The translations under genes and the position numbers were made by a program. From contig JAJFFH010000028.1 of the NCBI GenBank assembly GCA_021776735.1, positions 40,240-104,239 on the forward strand: a DNA stretch of 64,000 nt. Direction: 5' to 3'. Source of the stretch: Planctomycetota bacterium (GTDB lineage Bacteria; Planctomycetota; PLA2). Below, in pieces: positions 13,485 through 53,471 of the stretch. The notes under the pieces are model-generated. The model saw nothing but the letters and a program-made list of their open reading frames with translations. It was not told where the DNA came from and did not search any database. The first letter of the stretch is position 1. Each line of letters begins with the position of its first letter.

Positions 13485-16028
13485 TTACCCGTCGGCAAAA
13501 AACACACGGTCGATGGGCTGATCCGCCACGATCAGCTCGCCGGCCGCCTCTCCGTTGATCGAGACGGCGTAGGAACCGGGCGCAAGCGTACGGACGGCGA
13601 TGTTTCCGGCCTTGTCCGTGCGCCACAGGCGCGGCGTCGTCATCAATTCGAACGCGTTGCGCGTGGATCCGGCGCGCACGCCGTCTTCGTCGACGATCTC
13701 GACGATCGCGCCGACGCGCGGCAGCTCGTTGCGCAGAAACCGGAGTCGCACGGTGACGCCGCGCACGAGCGGCACCGTAATCGGTCCGTCGCCCGCAACT
13801 TCGATCAGGTACGACGCACGATCAGCAAACCCCGCCGCGGCGACCCACACGCGATAGCGCCCGCGCGGCAGCCGTGCCGTGAACTCGGCGGTGGCGAAAG
13901 GCCGGCTTTCGCTGGCGTAGAGTTCGGCGATGTTGCCGTCTTCGCCCCGGAGCAAGAACGCCGCCTTGACGGGTCGGCCGTCCGGATCGACCGCACGCAC
14001 CGAAAGCGCCGCCAGAGCGCGCGGATCGAAACGCCACGAAACGGACTTCGTTTCGGCGTCGGCGAGCGTCAGCGACACAGCCGCGAACGCGCCGCCCGTG
14101 CCGTAGAGGACGCGATACTTTCCGGCGTCGAGCCCCGTCACGGTGAAGCGGCCCTGCGCGTCGGCGCCAGTACGAGCCGTGAGCCCGCGCAGGAACACGC
14201 GTTCGCCGGCCTGTCCCACCAGGGCCCGATCCGCCGGACTCCGTTCGATAGTGATGTCGGCCTCCGCCAACGGCTTTCCCTCGGCGTCCAGAACCGTGCC
14301 CTCAAGCACGCCCAGCGGCATCGCAACTTCGACCGTTTGGCGCGGCTCGTCCGGGCGGATGGTGACGCTCTTGCTGATCAGCGTGCCCGTTTCGTTCGCC
14401 ACGGTCAGTTCGTACCGCCCCGGTTCGAGGGCGTCGAAGCGAAACCTTGCGTCCTCGTCGAGTTGGGCTTCGAGCCCGGGACGGTGCTCGCGGTCGAGGT
14501 CATACAGATAGACGAGACCCGCGCGGACCGGCTCTCCTCTTCGTGTAAAACGGCCCTCGAGGGTTGCGGTTTTCGTCGCGCCGAAGTCGAGGACGGCGAT
14601 GTTCCCGGCCGCGATCGTCACGCTGCGTTCCGCCGTCCGAAAGCGCGGCCGGTTCTCGGTCTGGGCCCCGGAGAGGGCCACTCGATAGCGTCCCGGTGCG
14701 AGATGCGGGAAGGACAGTTCGCCGGTGGCCGAAAAAACTGCGCGCGCGACGGGACGTGCGCCGAGTCCGCCGCCGAGCACTTCGCAGACAAGGCCGTCGG
14801 TCGGCTGCCCGCCGAGGGTCTTGGCGCGAACGAGCAACCCGCCGCCCGGCTTGAGCCGGATCGTTTTCGGCGCGTCGCCGGTCGGTACGGCGCGCAGGCG
14901 ATGGGGAACATGCTGCGGACTCAGCACGATCGCGTGAAACACCCCGGCCGGCAGTCCGTCGATCAGGACGTGGCCGCCGTCGTCGCTCACGCGCGTTTTC
15001 AGTCGGAAGGTGTTTGAGTCCTTGCGTGCCAGCACCGCGAGATCCTGGCGGTCCAGCATCGTGATCAGCGAGAGAATCGGTCCGCGTTCCGGCTCGCGTT
15101 CCAGGACCGGCTCGAGCGCGCGATTTCGTGCGGGGTTGTCTCTTGGTCCGGCGTAGAGCACATGGACATGCGCTCCCGCAATCGGATGACCGGTTGCTTC
15201 GTCGAGCAGGACGAGGGCGGCGCGGACACCCGGGACGGCCGGTTCGTCCGGCGCTTCGACAGCGGGTGTTTTTGGCGACGACAAGACATCGTCGTTCGTC
15301 TGCTGTGGAGTGCTCGGGGCGCCTTGGATCGGCGGCTGCTGGTGTTCGCGTGCGAGGGACACCGTGCGATCGCCCTTCTCGGTGCGGTCGTGGAGAAGGC
15401 GCCATCCGAGGGTGCTGGCGGCGACCGCGAGGACAGTGGCCACGATGAGGGTCTTGCTGAACATGAGGAGTGCTCCTTTTGGGATGAGAAGAGGAGCGAG
15501 GGCCCCGGTCCACGCTCGCCGGCCGTGCGAACGGTCGAGACGGGCGCGGAGACGTGCGAGCGCGCGTTGCAGGCGGGTGTGAACCGTCGAGACCGGTACG
15601 TCGAGGCGCCGTGCGATCTCTCGCGGCATGAGGCCGTCGAAGAAACGCAGGACGATCACCGTGCGATCGGTCTCGTCGAGTTCACGCACGGCGCGTGCGA
15701 CCACACTTTGCACTTCGGCGCGTGCCGCGGCATCCGCGGTGGGGTCGATCCGGTCGGGACGCGCTGCGGCGTGTTCGCGCGCCCGCCGTCGGTGTGCCGT
15801 ACGGTGTCCGCCCAGCGAGAGATTGCGCACGACACGGCCGAGCCAGCCGCGCAGGTTGTCACGATGTCGCGGCGGACGTTCCAGTGCGCGCACCATCGTG
15901 TCCTGCACGACATCGTCAGCCGTCGCCGCATCGCGCACGAGACTGCGGGCCAACGCGCGCAAGAACTCGGTGTGCTCAAGCAACGCACGAGCCGTCGGAC
16001 GGAGTGTTTCACCCGGATCAGGAGTCAT
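13485..16028 (-). CDS. ECF sigma factor fused to a TM helix and carboxypeptidase-regulatory-like beta-sandwich repeats
   Basis: Region 2 ADDVVQDT..LRGWLGRVVRN; region 4 LRFFDGL..EIARRL..TVHTRL; repeated G.V.D..G.P..A modules. Confidence 0.88.
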   Translation of the reverse strand: MTPDPGETLRPTARALLEHTEFLRALARSLVRDAATADDVVQDTMVRALERPPRHRDNLRGWLGRVVRNLSLGGHRTAHRRRAREHAAARPDRIDPTADAAARAEVQSVVARAVRELDETDRTVIVLRFFDGLMPREIARRLDVPVSTVHTRLQRALARLRARLDRSHGRRAWTGALAPLLIPKGALLMFSKTLIVATVLAVAASTLGWRLLHDRTEKGDRTVSLAREHQQPPIQGAPSTPQQTNDDVLSSPKTPAVEAPDEPAVPGVRAALVLLDEATGHPIAGAHVHVLYAGPRDNPARNRALEPVLEREPERGPILSLITMLDRQDLAVLARKDSNTFRLKTRVSDDGGHVLIDGLPAGVFHAIVLSPQHVPHRLRAVPTGDAPKTIRLKPGGGLLVRAKTLGGQPTDGLVCEVLGGGLGARPVARAVFSATGELSFPHLAPGRYRVALSGAQTENRPRFRTAERSVTIAAGNIAVLDFGATKTATLEGRFTRRGEPVRAGLVYLYDLDREHRPGLEAQLDEDARFRFDALEPGRYELTVANETGTLISKSVTIRPDEPRQTVEVAMPLGVLEGTVLDAEGKPLAEADITIERSPADRALVGQAGERVFLRGLTARTGADAQGRFTVTGLDAGKYRVLYGTGGAFAAVSLTLADAETKSVSWRFDPRALAALSVRAVDPDGRPVKAAFLLRGEDGNIAELYASESRPFATAEFTARLPRGRYRVWVAAAGFADRASYLIEVAGDGPITVPLVRGVTVRLRFLRNELPRVGAIVEIVDEDGVRAGSTRNAFELMTTPRLWRTDKAGNIAVRTLAPGSYAVSINGEAAGELIVADQPIDRVFFADG

Positions 16029-16037
16029 CGCTACCGG

Positions 16038-16067
16038 TAGAACGCCGCGAGTACGCTTTCCTGCTCA
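16038..16067 (-). promoter_or_regulatory. Putative ECF-type promoter of the 13485..16028 sigma gene
   Basis: TGAGCAGGAA-N12-GCGTTCTA ending 9 nt before the ATG; same geometry as the motifs at 29972 and 31499. Confidence 0.4.
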
Positions 16068-16176
16068 AGGATTCGAAACGGGCCGGGAGGGCGTGGGGAG
16101 AGATGTCTACGATGGTCGGTGACTTCCCGGGTTTTTTCCAACGGGAACCGGGGGGGCGGCAAGAAGCAGACGAGTC

Positions 16177-20174: not shown

Positions 20175-20948
20175 TCACTTCTGGCGGAAGAGCGAGATTC
20201 GGCGGCGGGCGTCCTCCCAGAGCATTGACTTCTTGAGGTCGCGGTCGAAGTCCTTGTGAAACGCTCGGCGGGCCGCAGCGCGCTTGTCCGCGTTGGCTTG
20301 GAGTGCTGCTTCGGCGTCGGCCTCGATCCTGGCCGGGTCGCGCCCCGCGACCGGGGTCTTGTCGTTTTGGAGTGCTGCCGTGAAACGGCGCAGCATCGCG
20401 TGGGCGAGGTTGCGCTCGGCGTGCGGCTTGGTCAGGTTGCGCGCGAGCAGGCTCACCTGCAAGCGTAGGCGCAGCGAACTCTCGTTCGCGACGACGGACT
20501 CCAGATACGACTCGTAGGTCCGGCGCAACTGCGCGTAGTTCTCGTCGTCCCCGCCTTCTGCCGCGCGGCCCCGGGCCGACCAGTCCTTCACGACGTCGCG
20601 AAGCGCCGAACGTGCGGCGGCTTCAGCGGCTTCGCGTGCTGCCCGGTCGGACTCGCTTTCCGGATTCGGATCGGAGACGGGCGCAGGGTCGCCGCCATCG
20701 TCGCTGTTCGCGGACGCCTCGACGGAGTCGGAAACATCGCCGTCCGTCTGCTTTTCTCCGGAATCCTCCGGCAAAAAACCCTCTTCCCAGGTGACGTCCT
20801 CGGCGTCTTCCGCTTCGTTCTCGGCCGAGGCGGCGACATCGGGCGCGGGGGCGTTGGCGGCCTCCTCTTCCGATTGTTCCCAGGGCGGCGTGGTTGTGGC
20901 GCAGCCGACGAGCAGAATACAGCCTAGGATTGTGCGAATGTTCCCCAT
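20175..20948 (-). CDS. Hypothetical lipoprotein with acidic low-complexity linker
   Basis: MGNIRTILGCILLVGC lipobox; the upstream part of the 600-aa track ORF is antisense to the next gene. Confidence 0.7.
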   Translation of the reverse strand: MGNIRTILGCILLVGCATTTPPWEQSEEEAANAPAPDVAASAENEAEDAEDVTWEEGFLPEDSGEKQTDGDVSDSVEASANSDDGGDPAPVSDPNPESESDRAAREAAEAAARSALRDVVKDWSARGRAAEGGDDENYAQLRRTYESYLESVVANESSLRLRLQVSLLARNLTKPHAERNLAHAMLRRFTAALQNDKTPVAGRDPARIEADAEAALQANADKRAAARRAFHKDFDRDLKKSMLWEDARRRISLFRQK

Positions 20949-21035
20949 GACGTGTTGGTTATCGGAAGACTGAAGCTCGAATTGACCGCCCGGCGTCTCA
21001 CGATGAAACCCGCTATGATGGGGGCGGAGGAAACC

Positions 21036-21958: not shown

Positions 21959-23125
21959 GTGTTGAGTCGGACCGCATGGGACCAACGGTTCCGGGAACGA
22001 ATGATGCGGTCGGACATGTCAGCGGAGCTGTTTTTTCCCATCGGCAACTCCGATTGGAAGGACGGCCGCTGGATCGTCCGGCGCGGCGAACGAGGCGAGA
22101 CCCGCACGGACATCACCGGTGTCCGGCTGCGTCCCGCCGATCCGCGGGGCGAGGATCTCGTCCCCGAGGGACAGGTCCGCACCGACCTCGTGAATCTGGT
22201 TGCGACCCTGCGCAAGGCGCGCGGGATCGAGGGCGGAAGCGGCCTTGTCTTGTCGTCGCGCATGCTCAGGCGTAGGCAAACGGACGGCGATACTCTTCAC
22301 CGCATCCGGTTCGGGCTGCAAGACACGGGATCCACCGGGGAGGACTCGGCCGTTGCCGCGCGGGCGTGCCATCGCCGCATTCGCCGCGCCGTCAGCAGGT
22401 CGGGGCTGGTCGTGGAGCACCCGCGGCGCTTTGATTCCGAGACGGGCCTTGCCGGACTCGAGACGTGGGCGGGGCAGGTGAGGTTGCGCCGCCGTCGCCG
22501 CTGGTGGCTCTGGCTCTTGCCGCTGCTGCTCCTGCTGATTCCGCTCTGGAAGCCGGATCTGGTCCGACCGGAGCGCTTTTTTGGCGTTGCGATCGAGACC
22601 AGGAGCCTTGTCATCCTGCTCGACAAGTCGTCGAGCATGGGCACGCATTTTGGCGCCGTGCAGGGCGAGGCGCGCCGCGTTCTGACGAGCATGGCCGGGG
22701 CGGATGCCGCACATTTTTGCAACGTGATCGCGTACGACCAACACGCGCATCCCGCCCTGCCCGGGTTGCGTGCGGTCGATGCGGACTGCGAGAAGCAGTT
22801 GGCCCAGTTCCTGTCCCGGCTTCGAGCTGGCGGCGGCACAAACCTGCGCGCCGGACTCGAGGAGGCCGCGCGCCAGGTCGCCCAGCACGGCCGGCCGACA
22901 ACGCTCCTGATCCTGACCGATGCGCAGGACTCGTCGATCCAGCAGATGCTGGCGGACAAGGACAGCCTGCTCGCGCGTTTTGCGGGCGTGGGCATCGTCG
23001 GCAACGCGCTGACGCCGCGCCTGTTCGGGAAGGACGGCGAGGCGCGCCCGGTCGATGGACACGAAAAAAACCTGGCGGCGCTCGCCGAGGCGCTCCACGG
23101 AAGGTTCGGACCCAATGATTCCTAG
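21959..23125 (+). CDS. Membrane-anchored von Willebrand A (vWA) domain protein
   Basis: GAGGAG RBS + GTG; RRRRR-WWLWLL TM segment; MIDAS DKSSS, GGGTN, ILTD. Confidence 0.85.
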   Translation: MLSRTAWDQRFRERMMRSDMSAELFFPIGNSDWKDGRWIVRRGERGETRTDITGVRLRPADPRGEDLVPEGQVRTDLVNLVATLRKARGIEGGSGLVLSSRMLRRRQTDGDTLHRIRFGLQDTGSTGEDSAVAARACHRRIRRAVSRSGLVVEHPRRFDSETGLAGLETWAGQVRLRRRRRWWLWLLPLLLLLIPLWKPDLVRPERFFGVAIETRSLVILLDKSSSMGTHFGAVQGEARRVLTSMAGADAAHFCNVIAYDQHAHPALPGLRAVDADCEKQLAQFLSRLRAGGGTNLRAGLEEAARQVAQHGRPTTLLILTDAQDSSIQQMLADKDSLLARFAGVGIVGNALTPRLFGKDGEARPVDGHEKNLAALAEALHGRFGPNDS

Positions 23126-28326: not shown

Positions 28327-29965
28327 CCGCGACCGGAACGATGACGTACCCGATCGCATCGAGGCGCGCGCGTTGGGCGTCGGTTAGCGCCAGTCCCGCG
28401 GTGAGAGCAGCGCTCAGGGAAAGCTGACGGACGGCGAGATCCTTGAGGTGTTTCGTCGGCATGAGTCGCACGCCGTGTTTTGGGTCGGGGCCCGGCCGGG
28501 GCAACGCCGCGGCCCACGCGGCAACGAGAGGCCGGGCGCGCGCGGTCTGATCCGTATCGAGTTCGAGAACTCCGACAAGGTGCGCGAGGACCGCGCGGGC
28601 CGGTCCGGTTGCCGCGTCGTACGGGAGGGCGCGTGCGCGCGCACCCCACACCAGGCCCGGCCCGAACAGGTCTGTAATGCCCTGGCCGCGATACGTCTGC
28701 GGCCTCAGGATGTTGCGCTGCTTCGCCGTGAGATGTCGCTCGAGCCGCGCCAGGAAACGGGTGCGGTTTTGGAGCGAGGCGTGCACGCGAGCCAGGATCG
28801 GTCCGTCCGCGGCGAGTGGTTGTGGGTTCCAGTCGCGCAAGAGCGTACGGACGGCGATGCCTTGCGCCGGCGAGAGTGGGGCGCCCGCGCGCCGTAGCAC
28901 CGCGCCGGCGAGGTTGGCGACGACGAGCGGATGCAGCAGCACCTCGTTCGGTGTCTCGCCCGGAATGCCTCGATGAGAAAGCGTAAGGGCCGCCTTGACC
29001 AACTCGCCGTTCCAGCGCTGGGCGAGCCCGGCTGTTTCGGGCACCGGGAACGTGCCATCCCCGGCACCGACGAGATCGGCGAGGAGCGGCCGCAGGATCA
29101 GGATTGCACGAGCGGCGAGATCCCAGTCGATGGCGCGCAACGCATCCTCGTGCGGCGCGAACAGAAACGTCGGACGGCGCGGATCTTGTTGCGCAATTCT
29201 GGAACCCTCCTCCCTGGTGCGCGGTACGAGGGCGGCGAGCCTTCGGGCGATTTCCCTGCTGCGGGCGCGCGCGTCTTCGAGTTCACCCGTCACGCCTGCA
29301 TGCGGTGCGGTCGCGAGTTCGGTGCTTGCCGGTGCATCGGGCGCGGTCGCGAGCGAATAGCCGGCGCCAAACGCGGTCAGCGCGATGGCGAGCGTGGCCG
29401 CCACGGGCAGAGCCGAACCGGTCGTGGAGCCTGCAAGTGCGAGCAGGCCGAAGCGCCACGTACGGGGATCTTCGCGATAGGCATCGTCAAGCGCGAGCCG
29501 GAGTTTTTGCAGGGCGCGGCGGAGCCGCGTGTCGACGGTCTTGACCGGCACGTCCATGACGCGCGCGATCTCGCGCGGCGGCCGATCGTCGAAGAATCGA
29601 TGGACGATCGTCGTCCGATAGGGCTCGGGGAGCTGATCGACCGCGTTCACCACGCGCCGTTGCACCTCGATGCGTTCCGCGACGGATGCGGTCGAGGCGA
29701 GAGACTCGGGGAGGGCGGCGGCGCGCTCCCGTTGCCGCCGCCGACTCTCGCTACGCCGCGTCTTGTAGGCGAGGTTGCGGGTCACCCCGGCCAGGAACGC
29801 GCGCAGGCGCGAGGGGTGGCGGGGCGGTTGGACCAGCGCGACCGCGAGGGTGTCTTGCACCACGTCGTCGGCCTCGGCATCGTCGAATAGAAGGCTGCGG
29901 GCCAATCCGCGCAAGAACCCGACGTGTTCAAAGAGCGCTTCGGGATTGATTCGCGGCGGCAGCAT
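28316..29965 (-). CDS. ECF sigma factor fused to a TM helix, coiled coil and an unknown helical domain
   Basis: ADDVVQDT..LRAFLAGVTRN; HRFFDD..EIARVMDVPVKTVDTRL; C-domain paralogous to 30317..31492. Confidence 0.88.
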   Translation of the reverse strand: MLPPRINPEALFEHVGFLRGLARSLLFDDAEADDVVQDTLAVALVQPPRHPSRLRAFLAGVTRNLAYKTRRSESRRRQRERAAALPESLASTASVAERIEVQRRVVNAVDQLPEPYRTTIVHRFFDDRPPREIARVMDVPVKTVDTRLRRALQKLRLALDDAYREDPRTWRFGLLALAGSTTGSALPVAATLAIALTAFGAGYSLATAPDAPASTELATAPHAGVTGELEDARARSREIARRLAALVPRTREEGSRIAQQDPRRPTFLFAPHEDALRAIDWDLAARAILILRPLLADLVGAGDGTFPVPETAGLAQRWNGELVKAALTLSHRGIPGETPNEVLLHPLVVANLAGAVLRRAGAPLSPAQGIAVRTLLRDWNPQPLAADGPILARVHASLQNRTRFLARLERHLTAKQRNILRPQTYRGQGITDLFGPGLVWGARARALPYDAATGPARAVLAHLVGVLELDTDQTARARPLVAAWAAALPRPGPDPKHGVRLMPTKHLKDLAVRQLSLSAALTAGLALTDAQRARLDAIGYVIVPVAVNR

Positions 29966-30316: not shown

Positions 30317-31492
30317 TCACCGCCGGTACGGCACCAGAATGCCGGAGCTCGCGCGCAACGTCTTTTTCTGCGCGTCCGTGAGCGGCACCGTCGCCAGGAT
30401 CGCGCGCTGGAGTTCGATCTGGTTCGCGCCGGCCTGTCGGATGCGGTCGGTGCGGTGAAACGCCTTTTGCTTGACGGCGAGGAACTCGTCGTCGAAACGC
30501 TGGGCCCAAACGCGCACCGCGTTCTCGAGTGCCGGTCGGGCGTCGTCGCCGAGGCCCAGCGCCTTAGCGAATCGGGCGGTCGTGTTTTTTTGTAGATCGG
30601 CGCGGGTCTTGAACGGGACCGGGCGCGCGAGCGGACCGAGCATGACGCCGTCGGAGACGATGTCGATCATCGCGTAGCCGCGGAGCTCCTTCGGCCGCAG
30701 CTTGTTCACCTGACCCGTGCCTAGAACCTTTTCCAGATCATCGACAAGCCGCGCCTTGAGCGCCGCTTCCTCCATCACGCGTTCGAGTGCCGGGACGTCG
30801 TCCGCGTATCCCTCCTGGCGCGCCTTTTCCTCGACCGTGAAACGCCGGCCCAACTCCTCCAGGGCCGCGTCTTGGTTCTCGCTCAACGGCACGTCGGACT
30901 GGCGCAGCGCGGACGCGACGAGGTTGACTGTCATGGCTGGATGGCTGAACGAACCGTTGACGCCCGTGCCCTTGACGCCGGCCTGCATCGCCGTGAGCGC
31001 CTGCGTCACGAGCGGGCCGTTCCAGCGCTGGATCTCGCCGGCCTCCGGCGGGTACGGCTTGCCCGCCAAGAGCGCCTCGGCCAGTTTCACGAGGAGCGGC
31101 GGCAGGTGGTCCACGGACTGGCCGACGCTGTTCCAGTCGATCGCGGCCAGAGCCTCCTCCATGCCTTCATAGACAAACGTCGGCTTCCTGGGATCGACCG
31201 CCGGCGCCTCGGGGACATCGCCGTCCGTCGGCTTTTCTTGCGGGGGCTCTTCGTTGTGCTTTTCGATCGCCGCCAATGCCGCGTCCAGTTTCGTCTGGAG
31301 CTTGCCGAGTTTTTCCTTCTCCCGCCCGAGTTCCTTGCGCAATTGTTCGACGTGCGCGCGCGGAACCGTGTCATTCCGGGACGCCGCGGCGCGCGCCGGT
31401 TCGGCTCTCGCCGACCGGCCCACTCCCCAGCCGAGAAAAAAGCCGGCGATGCCGACGAGGAGTGCCAGGGCGAGGGAAAGAGGGGAGCGCAT
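30317..31492 (-). CDS. Membrane-anchored/secreted protein; free paralog of the ECF C-terminal domain
   Basis: N-terminal TM and coiled coil; shares AIDW, QRWNG.LV, HP...NL, LRP...RG, LTDAQ with the neighbouring sigma fusion. Confidence 0.82.
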   Translation of the reverse strand: MRSPLSLALALLVGIAGFFLGWGVGRSARAEPARAAASRNDTVPRAHVEQLRKELGREKEKLGKLQTKLDAALAAIEKHNEEPPQEKPTDGDVPEAPAVDPRKPTFVYEGMEEALAAIDWNSVGQSVDHLPPLLVKLAEALLAGKPYPPEAGEIQRWNGPLVTQALTAMQAGVKGTGVNGSFSHPAMTVNLVASALRQSDVPLSENQDAALEELGRRFTVEEKARQEGYADDVPALERVMEEAALKARLVDDLEKVLGTGQVNKLRPKELRGYAMIDIVSDGVMLGPLARPVPFKTRADLQKNTTARFAKALGLGDDARPALENAVRVWAQRFDDEFLAVKQKAFHRTDRIRQAGANQIELQRAILATVPLTDAQKKTLRASSGILVPYRR

Positions 31493-31527: not shown

Positions 31528-31769
31528 AGCAATCTCCGTGGTTTCCGATAAACCCTGCATGCCGCAAACGGAGGGTACCAAGACCGAGGCTCCGCCCGCG
31601 CGCCGGGAGATCGATCTCGTGCGCTTTGACGCCGAGCAGCTCGATTCCGGGCTGTACCGGCACCGCCAGACGAAGTTCGTCTTCGAGCTTTCGCGTCCCC
31701 CGTCGGGTTAGGGGATCAGGGCGGAGGCAGCGTACGGACGGCGATGTCCGTGCGGCCCGCATGCCGTGG

Positions 31770-33656: not shown

Positions 33657-35215
33657 CGCAAGAACTCCTCCCATGATCCGGTGTTGGGCACGTCCTCGGC
33701 ACGCAGACCGCCGTGGCGCGCGGCCAAGACACCCCAGTGAACGTCGTCCATGCCTTCGCACGAGTGTGCGTCCGGATTGATCGGCACCCCGATCCCGAGT
33801 TCGACGGCACGCGCGTGCCAAGCGGGATCGAGGTCGAGGCGCCAGGGACTCGCGTTCAGCTCGACCAACGTGTTCGACGCAGCGCACGCGCCCAACACGC
33901 GCTCCACATCCACGGCGGACGGCTCGCGCCGCAGGCGCAGTTGTCCCGTGAGGTGGCCCAGGACATCGACGTGCGGATCGTTCACCGCGCGCACTATGCG
34001 CGCCGTCATCGTCTCCTCGTCCTGGTCGTGCACCGAGTGGATCGACGCGATCACGAGGTCGAGTTCGGCGAGGACCTCGTCGGGATAGTCGATCGCGCCG
34101 TCGTGCAGGATATCGACCTCGGTGCCGCACAAGACACGCACGGGCCCGCCGCGCTCGTTGAACGCGCGGATGGCCGCACCCTGCTCGAGCAACCGCTCGA
34201 CGGACAAGCCGTTGGCGTAGACCGCAAGCGGGCTGTGGTCGGTCACGACAAGGTACGAAAACCCGCGCTCGCCCGCGGCGGCCGCCATCTCCTCGATCGA
34301 GGCCGTGCCGTCCGACCACGTCGTGTGCGCGTGAACGAGTCCTTTCAGGTCCGCGCGCTCGATCAGACGCGGAACCGCCTCGGATCCGTCGCAAGCGTGG
34401 CGGCGCTCCGGCGGCACGAAAGAGAGTCCGCGCGACCGGTAGATCTCAAGTTCATCGCCGTCCGTTCCTGTCTTTGCGAGGACAGCTGCGACGTGATCGG
34501 CCGGCCCGGTCTCCTCGAACAGGGCCCGGGCGAACTTGTCGGATCTTTCCAGGCGGACGCGTACGGACGGCGATGTTTCGGTCGCGGGCTCCTCGATCAG
34601 CGCGGGTTCGCCGGCGGCCACGATGGAAATGCCGGATACCGTCGGCTCGCCGCGGCGCAGATCGCCGGCAATCACCGCGTCCTTCAGGCCGAGCCGCTCG
34701 ATGACGGCCTGTGCGGCGGCCCATGCGTCGTGCAGGCGGGCGCGGCCGTGCAGGGTGCGCAGGAACGCGATGCCTTCCCGCACCTTGCCCGCGGTCTTTT
34801 GCCCAAACCCCTTGAGTGCGGCCAGCCGTCCGTCGCCCGCAGCTTCTTCGAGCCCGTCAAGGGTGTGGACCCCAAGCTCCTTGAGGACCGTGTGGACCCG
34901 GCGCGGGCCGAGGCCGGGGACGCGGAGGACGTCGCGGGTTCCTGCGGGCAGCCGGGCCACGAGTTGTGCGTGAACCTCGCAGTCGCCCGTGACAACGATT
35001 TCCTGGATCGCTTTTTGGACTTTTTCGCCGAGGCCCTTGATCTTGGTCAGTTGGCCATGGGCGGCGAGGTCGGCGGCGGACGGGCCGAGGGTCTCCAGGA
35101 TTCGCGAAATGCGTCCGTAGGCGATTGCACGGCCCCTCGGCTCGCCGAGAACCTGCATCAGGATCTCGATCTCCTTGAACACCCCGGCGAGCGCCTTGTT
35201 CGTCAGACCGGCCAC
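33653..35215 (-). CDS. polX: PolX-PHP protein with degenerate polymerase active site
   Basis: HhH motifs IKGLGEK, VPGLGPRR, LKGFGQKT; AGDLRR; PHP motifs HAHTTWSDG, TDHS, GH, NPDAH; start GTG 35215 inferred. Confidence 0.88.
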   Translation of the reverse strand: MAGLTNKALAGVFKEIEILMQVLGEPRGRAIAYGRISRILETLGPSAADLAAHGQLTKIKGLGEKVQKAIQEIVVTGDCEVHAQLVARLPAGTRDVLRVPGLGPRRVHTVLKELGVHTLDGLEEAAGDGRLAALKGFGQKTAGKVREGIAFLRTLHGRARLHDAWAAAQAVIERLGLKDAVIAGDLRRGEPTVSGISIVAAGEPALIEEPATETSPSVRVRLERSDKFARALFEETGPADHVAAVLAKTGTDGDELEIYRSRGLSFVPPERRHACDGSEAVPRLIERADLKGLVHAHTTWSDGTASIEEMAAAAGERGFSYLVVTDHSPLAVYANGLSVERLLEQGAAIRAFNERGGPVRVLCGTEVDILHDGAIDYPDEVLAELDLVIASIHSVHDQDEETMTARIVRAVNDPHVDVLGHLTGQLRLRREPSAVDVERVLGACAASNTLVELNASPWRLDLDPAWHARAVELGIGVPINPDAHSCEGMDDVHWGVLAARHGGLRAEDVPNTGSWEEFLR

Positions 35216-35371: not shown

Positions 35372-35600
35372 AACCTCCGCGTCCGGGAAGTCCCGGGTGC
35401 GGTCAACCAGACGAGCCCAGGGCGACTCGCATGTCGGCCCGATCGATCTTCGGTCGCCTGCGTCACCCTGTCGCATGTCGGGCCAACTCGGGCCACTCGG
35501 GCCAGAGCGAACGGACGGCGATGTCTTCGAGCCGGAAGTAGCCGGCGCGATTGCCTCGGTGTCTCGTGGGCGCTGACCTGCGTCGGCCAAGATGTACAAG

Positions 35601-39848: not shown

Positions 39849-41741
39849 ATGCGGAACTTCATGCAAAACATCGCCGTCCGTGGGCTTTTTGTGGCAGCGT
39901 CTTTCGCCCTGCTCCTTTGGGCGTGCGGCGGTCCTGATCCTGCCCCGAAAAAAAAAGAATTGCCCCAGCGCGATGATCGGGCGGACGGTCCCGTGGAGAG
40001 CGGCGGTCCCTGGTTTGTGAACGAGGCGAAAAAGCGCGGGGTCGACCTCTTGAACCGTACCGGGAAGCCGGGCCGGAAGGAGTTCATTCTGGGGGCGGTG
40101 GGGCCCGGGGCCGCGGTGTTCGACGCCAACGGGGACGGTCGGCTCGACGTTTACATCCCAAACGGGAACTGGCTGGTCGGCGACCGTCGGACCGAGTTTT
40201 ACGGAGGTGACGACCGGCCACGCAACGCGCTCTACATTCAGCAGGCGGACGGGACCTTTCGCAACGAGGCGAAGGAGCGCGGGGTCGATGACGATGCGTG
40301 GGGGTTTGGTGCGGTGGCGGCCGACCTCGACGCGGACGGCGACCAGGATCTGGTCGTTTCGAACCTCGGTCCGAACCGGCTCTACATCAACGACGGAAAG
40401 GGCCGGTTTGCCGACGTAGCCGTCGCGGCGGGTGTGGCGGGGCCATCTGAGCGCGGGAAGTGGCAGTGGTCGACGGGCATTGCTGTTGCCGACTTCGATC
40501 GCGACGGGGTTCTCGACCTCTACATCGCCAACTACGCGGACATGTTCAAGTGGATGCGGGAATACGAGAAGATCAAGCGCGACGACCAGGGGCGGATCAT
40601 TCAGGCGCGCGTTTGTGACTGGCAGCGGCTCAAGGTGTACTGCGGCCCGCTCGGCCTGCCCGCGCAGCAAGATCACCTGTTTCGCGGCAAGGGCGGCGAA
40701 AACGCGGCGATTCGGTTCGAGGACGTCTCTCAACGAACCGGAATTCACCGGCCCGAGGACGATGGTGGACCGAAGTATGGATTCCAGGTCCTGTTCACGG
40801 ATGTCAACCTCGACGGCTGGCTCGACATCTATGTTGCGAACGATTCCGTCGAGTCGTTCCTGTTCGAGAGCCGCGGCGATGGCACGTTCGAGGAGCGCGG
40901 TGGCGCGTATGGGGTCGCGGTCGGGCGCAACGGCGACGATCAGGCGGGCATGGGGGCGACGACCGTCGATATGAACGGCGACGGCTACCCGGACCTGCTC
41001 AAGACCAACTTCAGTCTTCAGACCAACAACCTCTACCTGTCGGCCCGGCTGCCCGACGGCCGGATCGTGTACGGCGACTCGTCGGAGCGCACCGGCCTGC
41101 GAGCCGCGGTCTACACCGCGCTCGGGTGGGGGGTACTCTCGTTCGACTACGACAACGACGGCGACCGCGACATCTACTACGCGAACGGTCACGTCTACCC
41201 CGAGGTGGACACGCCCGCCGCCGCCGGACTCAACACGAGTTTCGAGCAGCTCAACATCCTGTTCCGCAACGACTCGACCGACACCAACGGCCGGCGGCGC
41301 CTCCGCTACAAGGAGCAGCGCGACGCGGGGCCGGGGCTATCTGTCCGCAAGTGCTCACGCGGCGCGTCGGTGATCGATTTTGACAACGATGGCGACCTCG
41401 ACATCGTCGTCATCAACCTGAACAACACGCCGGACCTCCTCGTGAACCACCGCGGGGCCCGGGAGGGCGCGTGGGTGAAGTTGCGGCTGACCGGCGATCC
41501 CCGAAAGAAAGTCAATATCGAGGGCATCGGCAGCCGCGTCACCGTGACCGCCGGCAACAAGTCACAGCTCTTCGAGACGCACCGCGGCGAGGGATTCCTG
41601 GGCTGCGGCGATCCGCGCGTCCATGTCGGACTCGGCCGGCACAAGGGCCCAATCGATGTCGAAGTGATCTGGCCGAACGGTCAAAAGCGAACCTACAAGA
41701 TCACCAATCTGCGCCAGACCGTAGAGCTCAAGTACGAGTAG
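39849..41741 (+). CDS. CRTAC1/ASPIC-UnbV family FG-GAP repeat lipoprotein
   Basis: Repeated DxNGDGxLD / DFDNDGDLD motifs; C-terminal RVHVGLG..VIWPNG; lipobox LWAC. Confidence 0.9.
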   Translation: MRNFMQNIAVRGLFVAASFALLLWACGGPDPAPKKKELPQRDDRADGPVESGGPWFVNEAKKRGVDLLNRTGKPGRKEFILGAVGPGAAVFDANGDGRLDVYIPNGNWLVGDRRTEFYGGDDRPRNALYIQQADGTFRNEAKERGVDDDAWGFGAVAADLDADGDQDLVVSNLGPNRLYINDGKGRFADVAVAAGVAGPSERGKWQWSTGIAVADFDRDGVLDLYIANYADMFKWMREYEKIKRDDQGRIIQARVCDWQRLKVYCGPLGLPAQQDHLFRGKGGENAAIRFEDVSQRTGIHRPEDDGGPKYGFQVLFTDVNLDGWLDIYVANDSVESFLFESRGDGTFEERGGAYGVAVGRNGDDQAGMGATTVDMNGDGYPDLLKTNFSLQTNNLYLSARLPDGRIVYGDSSERTGLRAAVYTALGWGVLSFDYDNDGDRDIYYANGHVYPEVDTPAAAGLNTSFEQLNILFRNDSTDTNGRRRLRYKEQRDAGPGLSVRKCSRGASVIDFDNDGDLDIVVINLNNTPDLLVNHRGAREGAWVKLRLTGDPRKKVNIEGIGSRVTVTAGNKSQLFETHRGEGFLGCGDPRVHVGLGRHKGPIDVEVIWPNGQKRTYKITNLRQTVELKYE

Positions 41742-44272: not shown

Positions 44273-44373
44273 GTGGATTCGACGATCATTCTAGCGTCAC
44301 CCTTCCCCCTTGGCGGCTCCTTGCCTTTTTGGTCGCGTGGGCTACCTTCTGTGATCGCGGCTTGTATCTCGTC

Positions 44374-44451
44374 GGTGGGTGTAGCTCAGTTGGTTAGAGC
44401 ACCAGATTGTGGTTCTGGGGGTCGCCGGTTCAAATCCGGTCACTCACCCCA
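44374..44451 (+). tRNA. tRNA-His(GTG)
   Basis: G-1, acceptor GTGGGTG/CACTCAC, anticodon GTG, T-loop GGTTCAAATCC, C discriminator, CCA. Confidence 0.96.
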
Positions 44452-44488
44452 AGCGGAATCCGGTTCTGCCGGATTCCGCTCTCTTTTT
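44452..44488 (+). terminator. Intrinsic terminator after tRNA-His
   Basis: AGCGGAATCCGG-TTCTG-CCGGATTCCGCT followed by CTCTTTTT. Confidence 0.85.
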
Positions 44489-44529
44489 GGCTCAGTCTGA
44501 GCACGCTTGAACGAACCAAAAGGACAGCT

Positions 44530-45009
44530 TTACGACGGCGATACACCCTCGTCCTCGGAGGCATCGCCGTCCGTCTGCTCCCTTGCGGCGTGCTCCCCGC
44601 TCTCGGACTCGCCTGTGTCAGAATCTCCGGCTTCATCGACTTCGGAGTCCTCACTGGCTCGCCGTTCGTCGGAAATCTGACCCAGGATTTCGTGAATCCG
44701 GGCGGCGCCGGCCACTGACTCGTCGAAGTGAAACACGAGATGCGGTGTCGTGCGCGTCTGGGTCGATCCGGCGACGGCCGCCTGGAGGAGACCGCGTGCG
44801 TCCTCGAGCGCGTGCGCGGCCTTGCTGCGGTCCGCCGGCGTCCCGATCATCGACCAGTTGACTCGGGCGATGGCGAGATCGCGGCTCAGGCGGATGCGCG
44901 TCACCGTGATCATCTGGAGACGCGGATCGGCCAGGCGCTGCGAGACGAGCGGCGCGATCGCCTGGTAGATGGCTTTTTCGAGGCGCTTGATGCGGCGTGC
45001 GTCGGCCAT
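44530..45009 (-). CDS. rbfA: Ribosome-binding factor A with acidic C-terminal tail
   Basis: DPRLQMITVTRIRLSRDLAIA..TPHLVFHFD; position after infB. Confidence 0.93.
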   Translation of the reverse strand: MADARRIKRLEKAIYQAIAPLVSQRLADPRLQMITVTRIRLSRDLAIARVNWSMIGTPADRSKAAHALEDARGLLQAAVAGSTQTRTTPHLVFHFDESVAGAARIHEILGQISDERRASEDSEVDEAGDSDTGESESGEHAAREQTDGDASEDEGVSPS

Positions 45010-45291
45010 TTACAAAATCTCCAACTGGTGGTCGATGACGCGGGCGACGGGGTGCAGTTTCAGGTGGTTCAGGACTTGCTGGAGCTGGCCCCGCACATAG
45101 TCGGCGTCGCCGCTCACGGCCGCGAAGCCGAGGCCCGCGCGCTGCCACTTGTCGAGGTCGCCGACCTCGGCAGCACTCACGTTGAAACCGGCACGGACCC
45201 GCGCGAGGACGGATCGGACCGTCTGGCGCTTCTCCTTGAGCGATCGCGCCTTGTCGATCGCGAGGTCCACCTGGAGTACGCCGACGTGCAC
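45010..45291 (-). CDS. DUF503 (YlxP-like) protein
   Basis: SLKEKR...FNVSAAEVGDLDKWQRAGLG; located between infB and rbfA. Confidence 0.9.
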   Translation of the reverse strand: MHVGVLQVDLAIDKARSLKEKRQTVRSVLARVRAGFNVSAAEVGDLDKWQRAGLGFAAVSGDADYVRGQLQQVLNHLKLHPVARVIDHQLEIL

Positions 45292-45344
45292 GATTCCGTT
45301 CGCTTGGGCCGCTGGGCCCTCAAGTACGTGCTTGCGGGAGCCCA

Positions 45345-47537: not shown

Positions 47538-47596
47538 GTTCGTTTTCTGTTCCGTTCCTTCTGAGGTCCTGTGCTGGAATCCCTGCGGGTTGTCCG

Positions 47597-48679
47597 CTAG
47601 CGGGGCTTGTCGCGAGCCTCCGGGTCATCCGTGAAGTCCTGCGCACCCGTGAGGCCCGCGCCACCGAGCTCCATGTCGTCGTCAAAGCGGCCGATGCGGT
47701 CCGGGGACTCCTCGAGTTCCCCGCCGTCGGTCTCGGCTTCCTCGTCCGTCAGGATGCTGATGTCCCACTTGCAGAGCTTGGCCGCCAGACGCACGTTCTG
47801 GCCGCGGCGGCCGATTGCGAGCGAGAGCTGGTCGTCCTCGACCACGACCTTCGCGCGCATGTTTTCCGAGTCGAGTGTGATCCAGCGAACCTGGGCGGGC
47901 TTGAGGGCGTTGCCGATGAAATCCTCGGTGCTGTCGCTCCAGCGGATCACATCGACCTTCTCGCCCTTGAGCTCGTCGAGAACGTTCTTGATTCGCGTGC
48001 CACGCACGCCGACACAGGCTCCGATCGCGTCGATCTTGCCGTCCATCGACTGCACGGCCATCTTGGTCTTGTAGCCTGCCTCGCGCACGAGGCCGCGCAC
48101 TTCGATGAATCGCTCCGCCAGCTCCGGAACCTCGAGTTCGAACAGCTTCTGCACGAAGTCGGGGTGGGTCCGGCTCAAGATGATCTTCACCTTTTGGCCG
48201 GCCTTCTTGACCTCTTGGACAAAGCCGCGCACGCGGTCGCCGATCCGGTAGTCCTCGCCGCGCATCTGTTCGGACTTGGGAAGGATCGCTTCGGTGCGGC
48301 CGAGGTTGACGATAATCGTGCCGCCCTCGAAACGCTGCACCGTACCGGTCAGGATCTGGCCGAGATGATGGTCGTACTCGTCGTAGATCACATCGCGCTC
48401 GGCCTCCCGAATGCGCTGGATGATCACCTGCTTCGCCGTCTGTGCCGCAATGCGGCCCAGATCAAGCGGGACCGTGACCTGACCGTCCGGGGTTTCCTCG
48501 TAGCAGCGAATACCGCCGGTTGTCCTGTCGATCTGGACGTTCAGATCCCCGGTGGTCCCGTACTGCTTGCGCGCGGCCGTCAACAGGGCCTGCTCGATCC
48601 CGTCGAACAGGGCCTCCTTGTCGATGTCCTTTTCGCGGTGGATCATGTCAACGATCCGAAGCAGTTCGGCACCCTCCAT
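47597..48679 (-). CDS. nusA: Transcription termination/antitermination factor NusA
   Basis: AAGGAG RBS; GRIAAQTAKQV, GACVGVRGTRI, SLAIGRRGQNVRLA. Confidence 0.97.
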   Translation of the reverse strand: MEGAELLRIVDMIHREKDIDKEALFDGIEQALLTAARKQYGTTGDLNVQIDRTTGGIRCYEETPDGQVTVPLDLGRIAAQTAKQVIIQRIREAERDVIYDEYDHHLGQILTGTVQRFEGGTIIVNLGRTEAILPKSEQMRGEDYRIGDRVRGFVQEVKKAGQKVKIILSRTHPDFVQKLFELEVPELAERFIEVRGLVREAGYKTKMAVQSMDGKIDAIGACVGVRGTRIKNVLDELKGEKVDVIRWSDSTEDFIGNALKPAQVRWITLDSENMRAKVVVEDDQLSLAIGRRGQNVRLAAKLCKWDISILTDEEAETDGGELEESPDRIGRFDDDMELGGAGLTGAQDFTDDPEARDKPR

Positions 48680-51767: not shown

Positions 51768-51990
51768 CGCGAGAATCCGCAGGGCGGGTTTTCGTCAGCG
51801 CGTGCCGGGGTGGTGGCTTGGGCCGCCCGGCCGGCCCCAAAGGAACATGAGTCGAACGTTCGCGTGCGTGCATCTCGCTCGCGCTATGTTCCTGCTCCAT
51901 GTGGGCCGCGGGGCGCGGCGAAGCGCCGACACCCGACCCCGGCCAACGAAAACCCGCTATGCGGATTCTCGGAGGGCATAATGATCGGGC

Positions 51991-53274
51991 ATGCCGTCGC
52001 TGCAGCTCGCCCTCGACTTCGTGGATCTTCACCGTGCCCTCGGGGTCTTGCGCGAGGCGCTGCGTGGTGGCGTGGACTGGGTCGAGATCGGGACGCCGCT
52101 GCTCAAGGCGGAGGGGCTCGATGCGGTTCGCGCGGTGCGCAAGGAGTGTCCGGGGCTGACGGTTGTCTGCGACACCAAGACGATGGACGCGGGACGGACC
52201 GAGATGGAGGCAGCCGCGAAGGCCGGGGCCGACGTGGCGACCGTGCTCGGCGCCGCGTCCGACGCGACGGTTCGCGAGTGCATCGAGGCCGGCCGGAACT
52301 ACGGGATCAAGGTGGCGGTCGATCTCGTCTCGGTGCAAGACCCGGTGGCGCGCGCGCGCCAGGCGGCCGAGTGGGGCGCCGCGGTCGTCGGCGTGCATTG
52401 TCCCATCGATGAGCAGATGAAGGGCAAGGACCCGTTCGCGACCCTGCGCGCCGTCGCGGAGGCCGTGGACATTTCGGTGTCGGTCGCTGGCGGCATCAAC
52501 AGCGAGACGGCGGGCCTGGCCGTCGCCGCGGGTGCGTCCGTCGTCGTCGTGGGGGGCGCGATCACCAAAGCCGAGGACGCCTGCGCGGCCGTGCAGCAGC
52601 TACGGCGCGTGATGGAGTCGGGCGTCGCCGAGCACACCGAGCTGTTTCGGCGGGGCGGTGAGGCCGACCTGCGGGAGCTGCTGGCGCGGCCGTCCGTGCC
52701 GAACGTTTCCGACGGCTACCACCACATGCCGCCGATTCCCGACCTGATCCCGATCGTAGCGGGCCAGAAGCTGGTCGGCCGCGCGGTCACGGTGCGCACC
52801 TACCCGGGCGACTGGGCGAAACCCGTCGAGGCGATCGATCAGGCGGGCGAGGGTGACGTCATCGTGATCGATGCGGGCGGCGTGCCGCCGGCGATCTGGG
52901 GCGAGCTGGCGACGCACAGCGCGGTGCAGAAAAAACTCGCCGGGGTCATCATCTGGGGCGCGATTCGCGACACTCCCGAAATCCGCGCCCTCGGTTTCCC
53001 CGCGTTTGCCCGCCACGTCACGGCGCGCGCGGGCGAGCCGAAGGGCTTCGGAGAGATCGGCGTGCCCATCGAAATCGGCGGCCAGTCCATCGAACCCGGC
53101 GACTGGATCGTCGGCGACGATGACGGCGTAATCCGCCTGCCCAGGCGCCACGCAGTCGAAATCGCCAACCGGGCGATGGACCGCATGGAAATGGAAAACC
53201 GCGTGCGCAAGGAAATCAAGGCGGGCTCCACCCTGGCGCAGGTCGCCGATCTGTACAAATGGGAGAAGCGGTGA
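51991..53274 (+). CDS. 3-hexulose-6-phosphate synthase (OMPDC fold) fused to an RraA/HMG-aldolase-like domain
   Basis: [31 protein letters not shown]; C-domain [23 protein letters not shown]. Confidence 0.88.
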
Positions 53275-53471
53275 TTGTTTGCCTGAACGGCTCCAACGTG
53301 GAGTTCGAGGCGGGTGCGACTGTGGCTGGGGCCGTGGAGCGCGTCGTCGAAGACAGTTCGCGCGTGGCCGTGGAACAGAACCGGGCGATTGTCCCGCGGG
53401 CCGCATGGAATCAGACAGAGCTGACGGACGGCGATGTCTTGGAAGTCGTCACGCTCGTGGGCGGCGGCTAA
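53271..53471 (+). CDS. thiS: Sulfur carrier protein ThiS
   Basis: VAVEQN..IVPR..W...[13 protein letters not shown]; precedes thiG. Confidence 0.93.

Follow-up and report, generated by a model that had tools for sequence, protein, structure and literature searches.

The window, a stretch of 64,000 nucleotides from a Planctomycetota bacterium, contains 11 exact copies of the 13-base word ACGGACGGCGATG spread over sigma-factor fusion genes, polX, rbfA, thiS, other open reading frames and the spacers between them. Exact matching confirmed every one of the 11 copies in the original prediction, in position and in strand:

13590..13602, + strand: antisense, IAVR near the C-terminus of an ECF-sigma/CarboxypepD_reg fusion gene (13485-15983, -)
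20735..20747, - strand: sense frame 0, TDGD, in an ORF without a Pfam match (20175-21845, -)
28847..28859, + strand: antisense, IAVR, in a second ECF-sigma fusion gene (28316-29965, -)
31216..31228, - strand: sense frame 0, TDGD, in an ORF without a Pfam match (30317-31663, -); the source-run contigs break at this copy
31734..31746, + strand: intergenic, between 31663 and 31770; covered by a contig of run X2
34453..34465, - strand: sense, TDGD, in polX (33653-35260, -)
34563..34575, + strand: antisense frame 1, SPSV, in polX
35511..35523, + strand: intergenic, 143 bp after the tRNA at 35296-35368; covered by a contig of run X3
39869..39881, - strand: antisense, IAVR, codons 6-10 of an FG-GAP/ASPIC-UnbV protein (39849-41741, +)
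44562..44574, - strand: sense, TDGD, in rbfA (44530-45009, -), within the part that encodes the C-terminal tail
53424..53436, + strand: sense, TDGD, in thiS (53259-53471, +)

The five near copies that had been listed beside them are also real, four with one mismatch and one with two:

10709..10721, - strand: 1 mismatch, T11>G
11199..11211, + strand: 1 mismatch, G2>C
22280..22292, + strand: 1 mismatch, G12>A, at the tolerant last position
28427..28439, + strand: 2 mismatches, at positions 11 and 12
59688..59700, - strand: 1 mismatch, A4>G

The peptide readings agree with those claimed (IAVR in the two ECF-sigma fusions and the FG-GAP/ASPIC protein, TDGD in rbfA, thiS, polX and two unnamed ORFs, SPSV in polX), as do the two intergenic placements, 31734 and 35511. 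Ten of the 11 exact copies have GC at positions -4 and -3 and ten are followed on the 3' side by T or C, the only copy lacking either feature being 34453. Together with 34563 it forms an inverted pair within polX, the two lying 110 bp apart with 34453 on the left.

The word is far too frequent to be a product of base composition or codon usage. Not one copy appeared in 100 dinucleotide shuffles of the window, and near-matches with at most two mismatches number 30 in all, compared with 6.0 expected. In the whole 5.97-Mb genome there are 1,202 exact copies (589 on the plus and 613 on the minus strand), where Markov models of order 1, 3 and 5 predict 1.2, 1.4 and 5.2, respectively, and no other family of 10-, 12- or 13-mers in the genome is as common as that of ACGGACGGCGATG. 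Within genes we count 673 copies, against a mean of 27.6 when synonymous codons are shuffled within each gene (10 runs) and 1.4 when codon order is shuffled. The observation is thus confirmed, and is stronger than first reported. The density is one copy per 5 kb, while the 10-mer core occurs once every 3 kb. An assembly artefact does not account for the copies: positions 28000-47999 of the window show 0 differences to contigs of the probable source run, and copies 31734 and 35511 show 0 differences in short contigs of two further runs, all of these runs belonging to one study and so not being independent.

In its full form, RAAGCRN-ACGGACGGCGATG-TYTYY, the word is asymmetric and covers ~24 bp, with a sharp 13-base core inside a graded footprint that is A-rich on the 5' side and T-rich on the 3' side. 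One-off variants of the core number between 2 and 37 at ten positions, and tolerance is limited to positions 1, 11 and 12 (198, 66 and 318 variants). Conservation around the copies ends within ~24 bp. The core is not self-complementary and the 5' and 3' flanks do not covary (MI ≤ 0.024 bits), so that the word forms no hairpin. Nor is it palindromic, and the earlier exclusion of parS- and matS-like sites therefore holds.

The results support the proposal, made from the window, that the copies are selected as DNA and not as peptide. According to a crude in-house gene caller, on which this split relies, 56% of the copies lie inside genes, 505 of the 1,202 are intergenic and 25 sit on gene edges, giving 42% intergenic copies compared with ~13% of the genome. 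Those in genes are not restricted to one reading frame but occupy all six, mostly as TDGD (345) and IAVR (162), and the flank preferences of the word persist in every frame class; the synonymous-shuffle null, too, fails to account for them. Convergent spacers and the region 20-40 bp past gene ends hold more copies than expected, and the direction of the flanking genes has no bearing on how the copies are oriented. In 64 cases a coding copy could be aligned to a same-family relative. The alignment at these sites is gap-free in 77% (95% of controls), at least 4 residues are gapped in 7.8% (1.1% of controls), and local protein identity is 0.32 compared with 0.55 in controls. Since most sites align without a gap at low local identity, the copies have arisen mostly by substitution in poorly conserved segments. 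The thiS site (53424) is an example, where the orthologue in genome G007 aligns gap-free and reads VEPAD. A similar origin is reported for USS and DUS (PMC2817400).

These data bear directly on a possible origin of the copies from a small mobile repeat that a transposase or nuclease has spread, be it a MITE, a REP/REPIN with its RAYT or a repeat of the Ssn type. Like such elements, the copies are short and dispersed, are over-represented in spacers and behind gene ends, and have close neighbours in inverted orientation, an arrangement also seen in REPINs and terminal inverted repeats; seven matches to Y1_Tnp and a single small GIY-YIG ORF occur in the genome, and the surplus of longer gaps at coding sites points the same way. 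Against this, REP/REPIN and MITE elements have a hairpin, an extended body or a fixed pair spacing, which the word lacks, and over half of its copies are genic, with the tested sites mostly colinear with the orthologue. The sequences enclosed by different inverted pairs mostly show no relationship to one another, and the flanks of partners agree at 9.3 of 24 positions compared with 8.9 at random. Similarity between pair regions is mostly confined to 21-35 bp at the word, a few being longer (e.g. 98 bp at 84% and 193 bp at 78%), and an inverted partner (at least 10 of 13 bases) is found within 80 bp downstream for only 64 of the 530 intergenic and edge copies. The RAYT-like gene is flanked by its own, different repeats. 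At six of the seven Y1_Tnp loci the nearest copy is more than 3 kb away, and the seventh carries different inverted repeats of its own. A single exact copy lies 583 bp upstream of the small GIY-YIG ORF (91 aa), with none on its downstream side, and the ORF has 57-59% homologues in relatives free of the motif. A mobile origin is thus largely refuted, and we consider it very improbable. The Ssn-related motifs, NTS/SRM, are described in PMC11893778 as present in hundreds of oriented copies that modulate transformation and are cut by GIY-YIG ssDNA nucleases; their core is a palindromic hairpin, and they are clustered near particular genes and on both sides of ssnA, a GIY-YIG gene of the cd10448 type. 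The word is similar in its hundreds of oriented copies but has no hairpin, is evenly spread and does not flank the small GIY-YIG ORF.

The word is also limited to resident DNA of a single lineage. Four stretches longer than 30 kb are free of the core, compared with ~0.08 expected (Poisson, from the genome-wide density). One of them encodes a Mu-like prophage, and in two others, where 4 and 1 proteins were scanned, AbiEii-like, DUF4209, TrwB-like, HATPase and SNF2/ResIII proteins are found. Prophage and island DNA lacks the word. The 40 relatives searched, all from outside the genus, have 0-4 exact copies each, with no excess at two or fewer mismatches, and 400 genomes of the phylum have no more than 0-1 copies each of the extended word. 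When k-mers were counted de novo in parts of two genomes (130 kb of G001, 200 kb of G007), no comparable dispersed asymmetric word emerged, although words rich in G/C are frequent in G001.

The arrangement of the copies follows a rule of orientation that is new in this analysis. Copies in the same orientation exclude each other within ~1 kb, there being 12 gaps shorter than 800 bp compared with 87 expected, and 137 of the 145 neighbouring copies less than 800 bp apart are inverted. Neighbours of opposite orientation are at or above the expected number; inverted pairs are in 2-3-fold excess below 200 bp, and below 100 bp there are 37 compared with 11 expected. The rule is specific to the word, as 12 control 9-mers of similar abundance are inverted in 45-52% of cases beyond 100 bp and in 15-61%, leaning towards direct, below 100 bp.

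One explanation of this rule requires no function. The word could be the product of a sequence-biased mutation, repair or gene conversion process peculiar to the lineage, or the fossil of a drive that has ended, and close direct pairs could be missing through deletion between direct repeats. In B. subtilis and E. coli, short direct repeats are deleted less often the farther apart they lie, over a scale of ~1 kb. Substitution gave rise to the coding copies, the word occurs in a single lineage, and depletion in recently acquired DNA is expected of anything that accumulates slowly. However, we know of no repair bias that writes an asymmetric word of 13-24 bp. Other close direct repeats persist in the genome (arrays with a 36-bp period and ~120-bp-spaced repeats beside the RAYT-like gene), so a generic purging of direct repeats is not evident. 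The rule is not seen in the control 9-mers, and deletion leaves the excess of close inverted pairs unexplained. A functionless origin therefore seems improbable.

A directional chromosomal site could also explain the rule. The copies could act as an array of sites for a protein inside the cell, peculiar to the lineage, that binds DNA or translocates along it and is sensitive to the direction of the word, for example a Chi-type regulator of an AddAB-like enzyme, a translocase loading or stop site, or a nucleoid organiser. Same-strand copies within ~1 kb would then be redundant or harmful while the two strands served two directions independently, and such a two-direction signal predicts the deficit of same-orientation gaps without depletion of opposite neighbours. 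The sharp core with its graded 24-bp footprint suits a protein site. In common with Chi, KOPS and AIMS, the word is over-represented and its orientation matters locally; its density resembles that of E. coli Chi, which is also ~1 per 5 kb. An AddA/AddB-like pair is present as two adjacent large ORFs with PD-(D/E)XK domains, and RecC was not found in this 93% complete genome. Known Chi and KOPS are strongly polarised, however, and Chi sites are of 5-8 nt. Mapping against GC skew gave 265/244 copies on the two strands in regions of positive skew and 270/304 in regions of negative skew, with 52-53% co-oriented. The word is thus without replichore polarity and not Chi- or KOPS-like, which bears out the earlier setting aside of these two systems. 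Furthermore, a housekeeping signal should be found in relatives, and none of the 440 other genomes searched has the word; its absence from prophage and islands suits slow accumulation over a need for even coverage, and no candidate reader protein was identified. We regard a directional site of this kind as rather unlikely, though a serious rival to the uptake reading.

The explanation that we prefer, tentatively and with a probability of roughly 0.4, is that the word is a DNA-uptake-sequence-like self tag, lineage-specific, read by a protein and of the same kind as DUS and USS, the reading being strand- or orientation-specific. A sequence-specific reader acting in DNA exchange would favour DNA carrying the full 24-bp form, and would most likely be a surface or periplasmic part of the type IV pilus/ComEA/ComEC transformation route. 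Near-matches mutating towards the word would be favoured in uptake and would spread through the population by recombination (molecular drive), and the word would build up by point substitution wherever coding constraint permits, most easily between genes. Close inverted pairs, with their A-rich 5' and T-rich 3' sides, may serve in addition as bidirectional terminators. We infer the strand-specific reading because the orientation rule needs explaining. If recognition took place, for example, on the single strand entering the cell, a second same-strand copy within one recombination tract (~1 kb) would add nothing and would not be driven, whereas a copy on the opposite strand would still add benefit. 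The competence genes that were looked for, ComEC, DprA and a ComEA-like HHH_3 ORF, are present, together with 15 T2SSE, 7 secretin and 18 prepilin-type N_methyl matches. Competence-gene profiles also match in most of the control genomes, so their presence does not discriminate.

The known DUES are the DUS of Neisseriaceae (12 nt), with the minor pilin ComP as receptor, and the USS of Pasteurellaceae (a 9-nt core in ~29 bp), where ComN is the predicted receptor. The genomes of H. influenzae and Neisseria are ~2 Mb in size. In PMC1939737, 1,471 and 1,965 copies are reported for these organisms, with 65%/35% in ORFs and ~10% as inverted repeats; they are not palindromes, are in excess in non-coding DNA and are evenly spaced without orientation bias. 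About half of known DUES lie within terminators according to bioRxiv 10.1101/2025.10.24.684340. The word described here is likewise short, asymmetric and hyper-abundant; its core is sharp and its AT-rich flanks are weaker, and it is equally frequent in both orientations and without replichore bias. Its genic copies are found in permissive frames and poorly conserved segments, there is an excess between genes and near gene ends with a minority in terminator-like inverted pairs, and it is scarce in foreign DNA and lineage-specific. Most of the hallmarks of uptake sequences that can be seen in silico are therefore present, and the original prediction of an uptake or binding site is partly supported. 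Two features, the lack of dialects in relatives and the orientation rule, sit badly with the uptake reading, so that both halves of that prediction are still in play. The word departs from the known DUES in being several times less dense, in belonging to a lineage outside the two families, and in not being shared as dialects with family or order relatives, where known DUES span whole families. The orientation rule is a further difference, no same-orientation exclusion being described for DUS or USS in the available parts of PMC1939737 and bioRxiv 10.1101/2025.10.24.684340. Since USS orientation is without effect on uptake in H. influenzae (PMC1939737), the strand-specific step that we propose would have no precedent in that system; a precedent for the strand-specific reading of a genomic repeat is provided by NTS/SRM, which are read on single-stranded DNA (PMC11893778).

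The GCCGTC in common with the Neisseria DUS amounts to only six bases and is treated as chance. The HIP1 element of cyanobacteria, an 8-bp palindrome, is also lineage-specific, hyper-abundant and found both in and between genes; the word shares these traits with it but is long and asymmetric.

A pattern search of the window found all 11 exact copies of the asymmetric 13-mer ACGGACGGCGATG that the original prediction had counted, each in place and on the claimed strand, and a mismatch search showed that the five claimed near copies are also real. The word is held by 0 of 100 dinucleotide shuffles of the window, which lies at G000:C21:40240-104239. The whole genome (G000; 5.97 Mb in 71 contigs, 66.3% G+C, 93% complete, from a biofilm metagenome according to the run records) carries 1,202 exact copies, split 589 to 613 between the strands, and its commonest 10-mer (GGACGGCGAT, n = 2,022) and commonest 12-mer (ACGGACGGCGAT, n = 1,520) are both sub-words of ACGGACGGCGATG. 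The over-representation holds against both kinds of null: Markov models of order 1, 3 and 5 predict 1.2, 1.4 and 5.2 copies, respectively, and for the 673 copies in genes a synonymous-codon shuffle within each gene, which leaves every protein unchanged, gives a mean of 27.6 and a codon-order shuffle 1.4. Full-text literature searches (supplementary files excluded) with ACGGACGGCGATG, its complement and the 10-mer core returned only primer-type matches in unrelated papers, and nothing relevant was found on uptake sequences in Planctomycetes; the word itself is new to the searchable literature.

Assembly artefact as the source of the copies is ruled out by contigs of several runs, mutually non-independent because they come from one study. 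The stretch 28000–47999 of the window shows 0 differences to contigs of the probable source run, the copies at 31734 and 35511 lie in identical short contigs of two more runs, and eight covered copies show 0 differences in run contigs (2–12x depth, with rare variants below detection). Loose contig ends or joints at 28842–28860, 34453 and 35506–35527 are other motif loci of the genome aligning on the word.

Alignment of all copies extends the word to R-A-A-G-C-R-N-ACGGACGGCGATG-T/C-Y-T-Y-Y, with preferences for A at − 5 (70% of copies), G at − 4 (79%), C at − 3 (76%) and a pyrimidine at + 13 (95%); conservation runs from about − 10 to + 18 and there is none outside. At ten core positions one-off variants number 2–37 each against the 1,202 exact copies, and the tolerant positions are 1 (198 variants, mostly A), 11 (66) and 12 (318). 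Covariation between the 5′ and 3′ flanks is lacking (mutual information at most 0.024 bits). A unit on its own thus folds into no hairpin, and a REP or hairpin structure of the word is rejected. The flank preferences are kept in intergenic copies and in every reading-frame class, indicating that the flanks too are DNA-level features.

Genes were called with our own simple caller (codon log-odds trained on long ORFs; 4,463 genes, 87% coding), whose calls match Pfam at those window genes that were compared; the coding and intergenic figures depend on it. Copies between genes (505) and straddling a gene edge (25) make up 42–44% of all copies in ~ 13% of the genome. All six frames, rather than a single one, are represented among the 672 coding copies (TDGD 345, IAVR 162, RTAM 75, SPSV 49, HRRP 22, GRRC 19). 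With the failure of the synonymous null and the frame-independent flanks, this bears out the earlier view that the word is selected as DNA and not as peptide. Convergent spacers hold 146 copies in 145 kb and divergent spacers 82 in 193 kb; intergenic copies are also dense 20–40 bp past gene ends, with a mild excess in the gene's own direction past the stop codon (87 versus 43 in the other orientation). With respect to the genes beside them, intergenic copies point either way without preference (73/75, 77/69, 44/38 and 73/77), on which ground a promoter, 5′UTR or RNA signal is rejected. Nor is there an association with GC skew, our proxy for replication direction on this fragmented assembly (265/244 in skew-positive and 270/304 in skew-negative regions), so that the replichore polarity of Chi or KOPS is absent, as the original prediction had argued. 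The genome has an AddAB-like pair at about 39000–46000 of contig C6: neighbouring ORFs that measure 1,057 and 1,144 codons from stop to stop and both carry a C-terminal PD-(D/E)XK nuclease domain. A search for RecC (PF04257) had no match in the genome, which is 93% complete. Both tRNA genes at 35296–35368 and 44375–44448 of the window (+ strand) have an exact motif copy 114–143 bp downstream (35511 and 44562), two cases being too few for meaning.

The origin of the coding copies was assessed against 1.0 Mb of G007, a single distant relative from the same family with orthologues of ~ 60% protein identity. Orthologue-like matches were obtained for 83 sites in 75 proteins, with 64 sites inside the alignment. 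Of these 64, 77% have no gap (controls 95%) and 7.8% have at least 4 gapped residues (controls 1.1%), and local protein identity is 0.32 versus 0.55. Most of the coding copies are thus in register with the orthologue and arose by substitution where the protein is poorly conserved, and a minority lie in indel-prone linkers.

Neighbouring copies obey an orientation rule, which is a new observation. Neighbours are inverted, that is, on opposite strands, in 37 of 37 cases below 100 bp, 56 of 59 at 100–400 bp and 44 of 49 at 400–800 bp, and the inverted share then falls with distance (82/117 at 0.8–1.5 kb, 161/270 at 1.5–3 kb and 327/619 beyond 3 kb). Twelve control 9-mers of similar abundance are 45–52% inverted above 100 bp and 15%–61% below, where they mostly lean to direct. 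Counted per strand, same-orientation gaps number 12 versus 87 expected below 800 bp and 39 versus 70 at 0.8–1.5 kb. The next opposite-orientation copy lies within 100 bp in 37 cases (11 expected), at 100–200 bp in 23 (11) and at 200–400 bp in 32 (22), and is at expectation beyond 400 bp. These counts therefore describe a same-strand exclusion reaching to about 1–1.5 kb and an opposite-strand attraction reaching to about 400 bp. The closest “+-” pairs have a perfect stem, an A-rich flank before and a T-rich flank after, in the manner of a bidirectional intrinsic terminator. Among the 530 copies between genes or at gene edges, only 64 have a partner of this kind (at least 10 of 13 positions) at most 80 bp downstream. 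About half of DUES, the DNA uptake enhancing sequences of Neisseriaceae (DUS) and Pasteurellaceae (USS), are stated to lie in terminators (bioRxiv 10.1101/2025.10.24.684340).

Local copying of partners is rejected, the flanks of inverted neighbours scoring 9.34 of 24 positions versus 8.94 for random ones (z ~ 1.8). Three direct pairs of the 13-mer lie within 400 bp; one belongs to a protein segment with repeated D-x-D-G-D, another to a local duplication. Other close direct repeats survive in the genome, and a generic purging of direct repeats thus does not explain the rule; we consider it improbable that the word reflects a functionless mutational or fossil process. The main rival to the reading that we prefer is a binding site read directionally inside the cell, a possibility that we rate lower; the rule is directional at short range and the copies have no polarity relative to the replichore. 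Distance profiles and the outcome of strain comparisons would differ between three models: drive with strand-specific reading, a directional signal on the chromosome, and deletion.

Four stretches of the genome lack the 10-mer core for 59.9, 47.6, 38.9 and 33.9 kb (contigs C6, C45, C27 and C19), where our own Poisson arithmetic from core density gives ~ 0.08 gaps above 30 kb. Under the codon model trained on the host, the C6 and C45 stretches score lower as coding DNA.

Core-free stretches and the proteins found in them
G000:C19:1723-35632, 34 kb: Mu-like major head (capsid) protein, phage tail protein, ParB-like protein
G000:C6:51387-111239, 60 kb, G+C 61.8%: AbiEii-like AAA, DUF4209/DUF7380, TrwB-like coupling protein, HATPase_c_3 (4 proteins scanned)
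G000:C45:95222-142787, 48 kb, G+C 63.7%: SNF2/ResIII helicase (1 protein scanned)

The C19 stretch is a probable prophage, and those on C6 and C45 are probably defence or integrative islands; contig C19 ends in a Y1_Tnp fragment. The word thus marks resident DNA. Motif-free stretches, by coinciding with prophage and island genes, flag foreign islands, and the word is a near-perfect marker for binning contigs of the organism.

The word is restricted to one lineage. In 40 relatives, all from outside the genus (10 share the family, 29 the order and 1 the phylum), there are 0–4 exact copies of ACGGACGGCGATG each, and no dialects, sequences within 2 mismatches numbering 155–661 each versus 2,861 in G000. 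An extended form, GCNNACGGACGGCGATG, has 901 copies in G000 and 0–1 in each genome of a further set of 400 from the phylum (287 genera). When k-mers were counted de novo in 130 kb of G001, another member of the family, and in 200 kb of G007, no dispersed asymmetric word of this kind emerged. A search of metagenome contigs for closer relatives through polX found nothing above 63% identity, with core counts there at background. As to the taxon, an IF-2 search gave a weak pointer to Verrucomicrobiota and Planctomycetota, and PF07596, a family typical of planctomycetes, had no match in G000 or in any control genome.

Known repeat classes do not account for the word, and a REP or MITE remnant is not supported. 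It is very unlikely to be a mobile repeat: all-against-all BLAST of 76 inverted-pair regions gave, among the matches listed, mostly 21–35 bp at the word, with interiors mostly unrelated, and a MITE is rejected for lack of an element body and because most sites are colinear with orthologues. REP/REPIN is rejected likewise: the unit lacks a hairpin, the RAYT-like gene (Y1_Tnp; C53:81044-82007) comes with different inverted repeats of its own, and 6 of 7 Y1_Tnp loci have no motif copy within 3 kb. Ssn-type repeats are hairpins clustered around and flanking the GIY-YIG nuclease gene ssnA (PMC11893778, whose Supplementary Data 4 tabulates genomes with > 200 of these Ssn-related motifs). The one small GIY-YIG ORF of G000 (91 aa) does not have the word on both flanks and has 57–59% homologues in relatives without the motif, so that an Ssn-type repeat is rejected; the ORF is also rejected as reader protein, being not specific to G000 and having no NCBIfam match. 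Only seven clusters pack at least 4 cores into 1.5 kb, and these suggest no obvious gene for a reader.

The original prediction offered an uptake sequence or a chromosome-binding site. We tentatively rank first, with a probability of about 0.4, a DUES-like self tag, which would accumulate through biased DNA exchange followed by recombination. To cover the orientation rule, this reading has to assume in addition that recognition of the word is confined to one strand or is directional; same-strand copies within one recombination tract would then be mutually redundant, and copies would consequently alternate in orientation at short range. A strand preference of the DUS in single-stranded transformation of Neisseria gonorrhoeae is reportedly known, a literature search finding no such paper. 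The Ssn system (NTS) gives a precedent for a genomic repeat that is read strand-specifically during transformation (PMC11893778). In Haemophilus influenzae, USS orientation had no effect on uptake (PMC1939737). Against the tag stand the lack of dialects in all 40 relatives and a density lower than that of known DUES. The word resembles uptake sequences, which are described as sitting in poorly conserved protein segments and permissive frames (PMC2817400), in both of these respects; it is unlike the DUES of known families in density and dialects. The competence genes that the original prediction proposed to look for are present, profile searches finding ComEC, DprA, a ComEA-like ORF, pilus ATPases, secretins and prepilins, but these are common genes that do not discriminate and prove nothing on uptake. 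Self-DNA recognition in transformation is described as established in two proteobacterial families only, with ComP and predicted ComN as DUES receptors (bioRxiv 10.1101/2025.10.24.684340). A bolder claim, which we regard as doubtful, is that the word is the first self tag of the uptake-sequence kind beyond Neisseriaceae and Pasteurellaceae, and one read on one strand or in one direction. If true, it would be a third and unrelated case on which the origin of such tags could be tested, because the word, confined to one lineage with untagged relatives, appears young; the rule could also reveal a step of exchange or repair (single-strand entry, nuclease protection or directional packaging into particles) not displayed by known uptake sequences.

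Several other repeats were seen. ACATCTGACGATG, the commonest long word of G007, was considered as an analogue and proved to be a tandem-array repeat. Its family has 28 copies in G000, outside the window, and 108 in G007, and is absent from 38 of 39 other relatives, the remaining one having a single copy; head-to-tail arrays are frequent, their periods being 30, 36, 60 or about 100 bp, and several of them lie at the ends of contigs.

Sites of the ACATCTGACGATG repeat
G000:C34:333755-333839: repeat site
G000:C48:3-123: repeat site (others in the same genome)
G007:C1:7087-7189: repeat site, one of many in this relative

At G000:C53:80600-82300 (L145:1100-2750) the RAYT-like gene has two direct copies of a ~ 100-bp repeat upstream and two inverted relatives of it, containing GGCTGCCAAAGGGCC, downstream, a separate REP-like family with its probable transposase. 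In G001 (72% G+C; 130 kb, loci L081–L090), the commonest 12–14-mers are G/C-rich, for example GCCCCCGGACCCCC (12 copies), and may be hairpin-type repeats. Finally, the class II ribonucleotide reductase at 35663–39496 of the window (1,277 aa, with a TSCPD domain) is ~ 60% identical to proteins of many Alphaproteobacteria, Plesiocystis and Gemmatales MAGs alike and does not follow the phylogeny of the organism.
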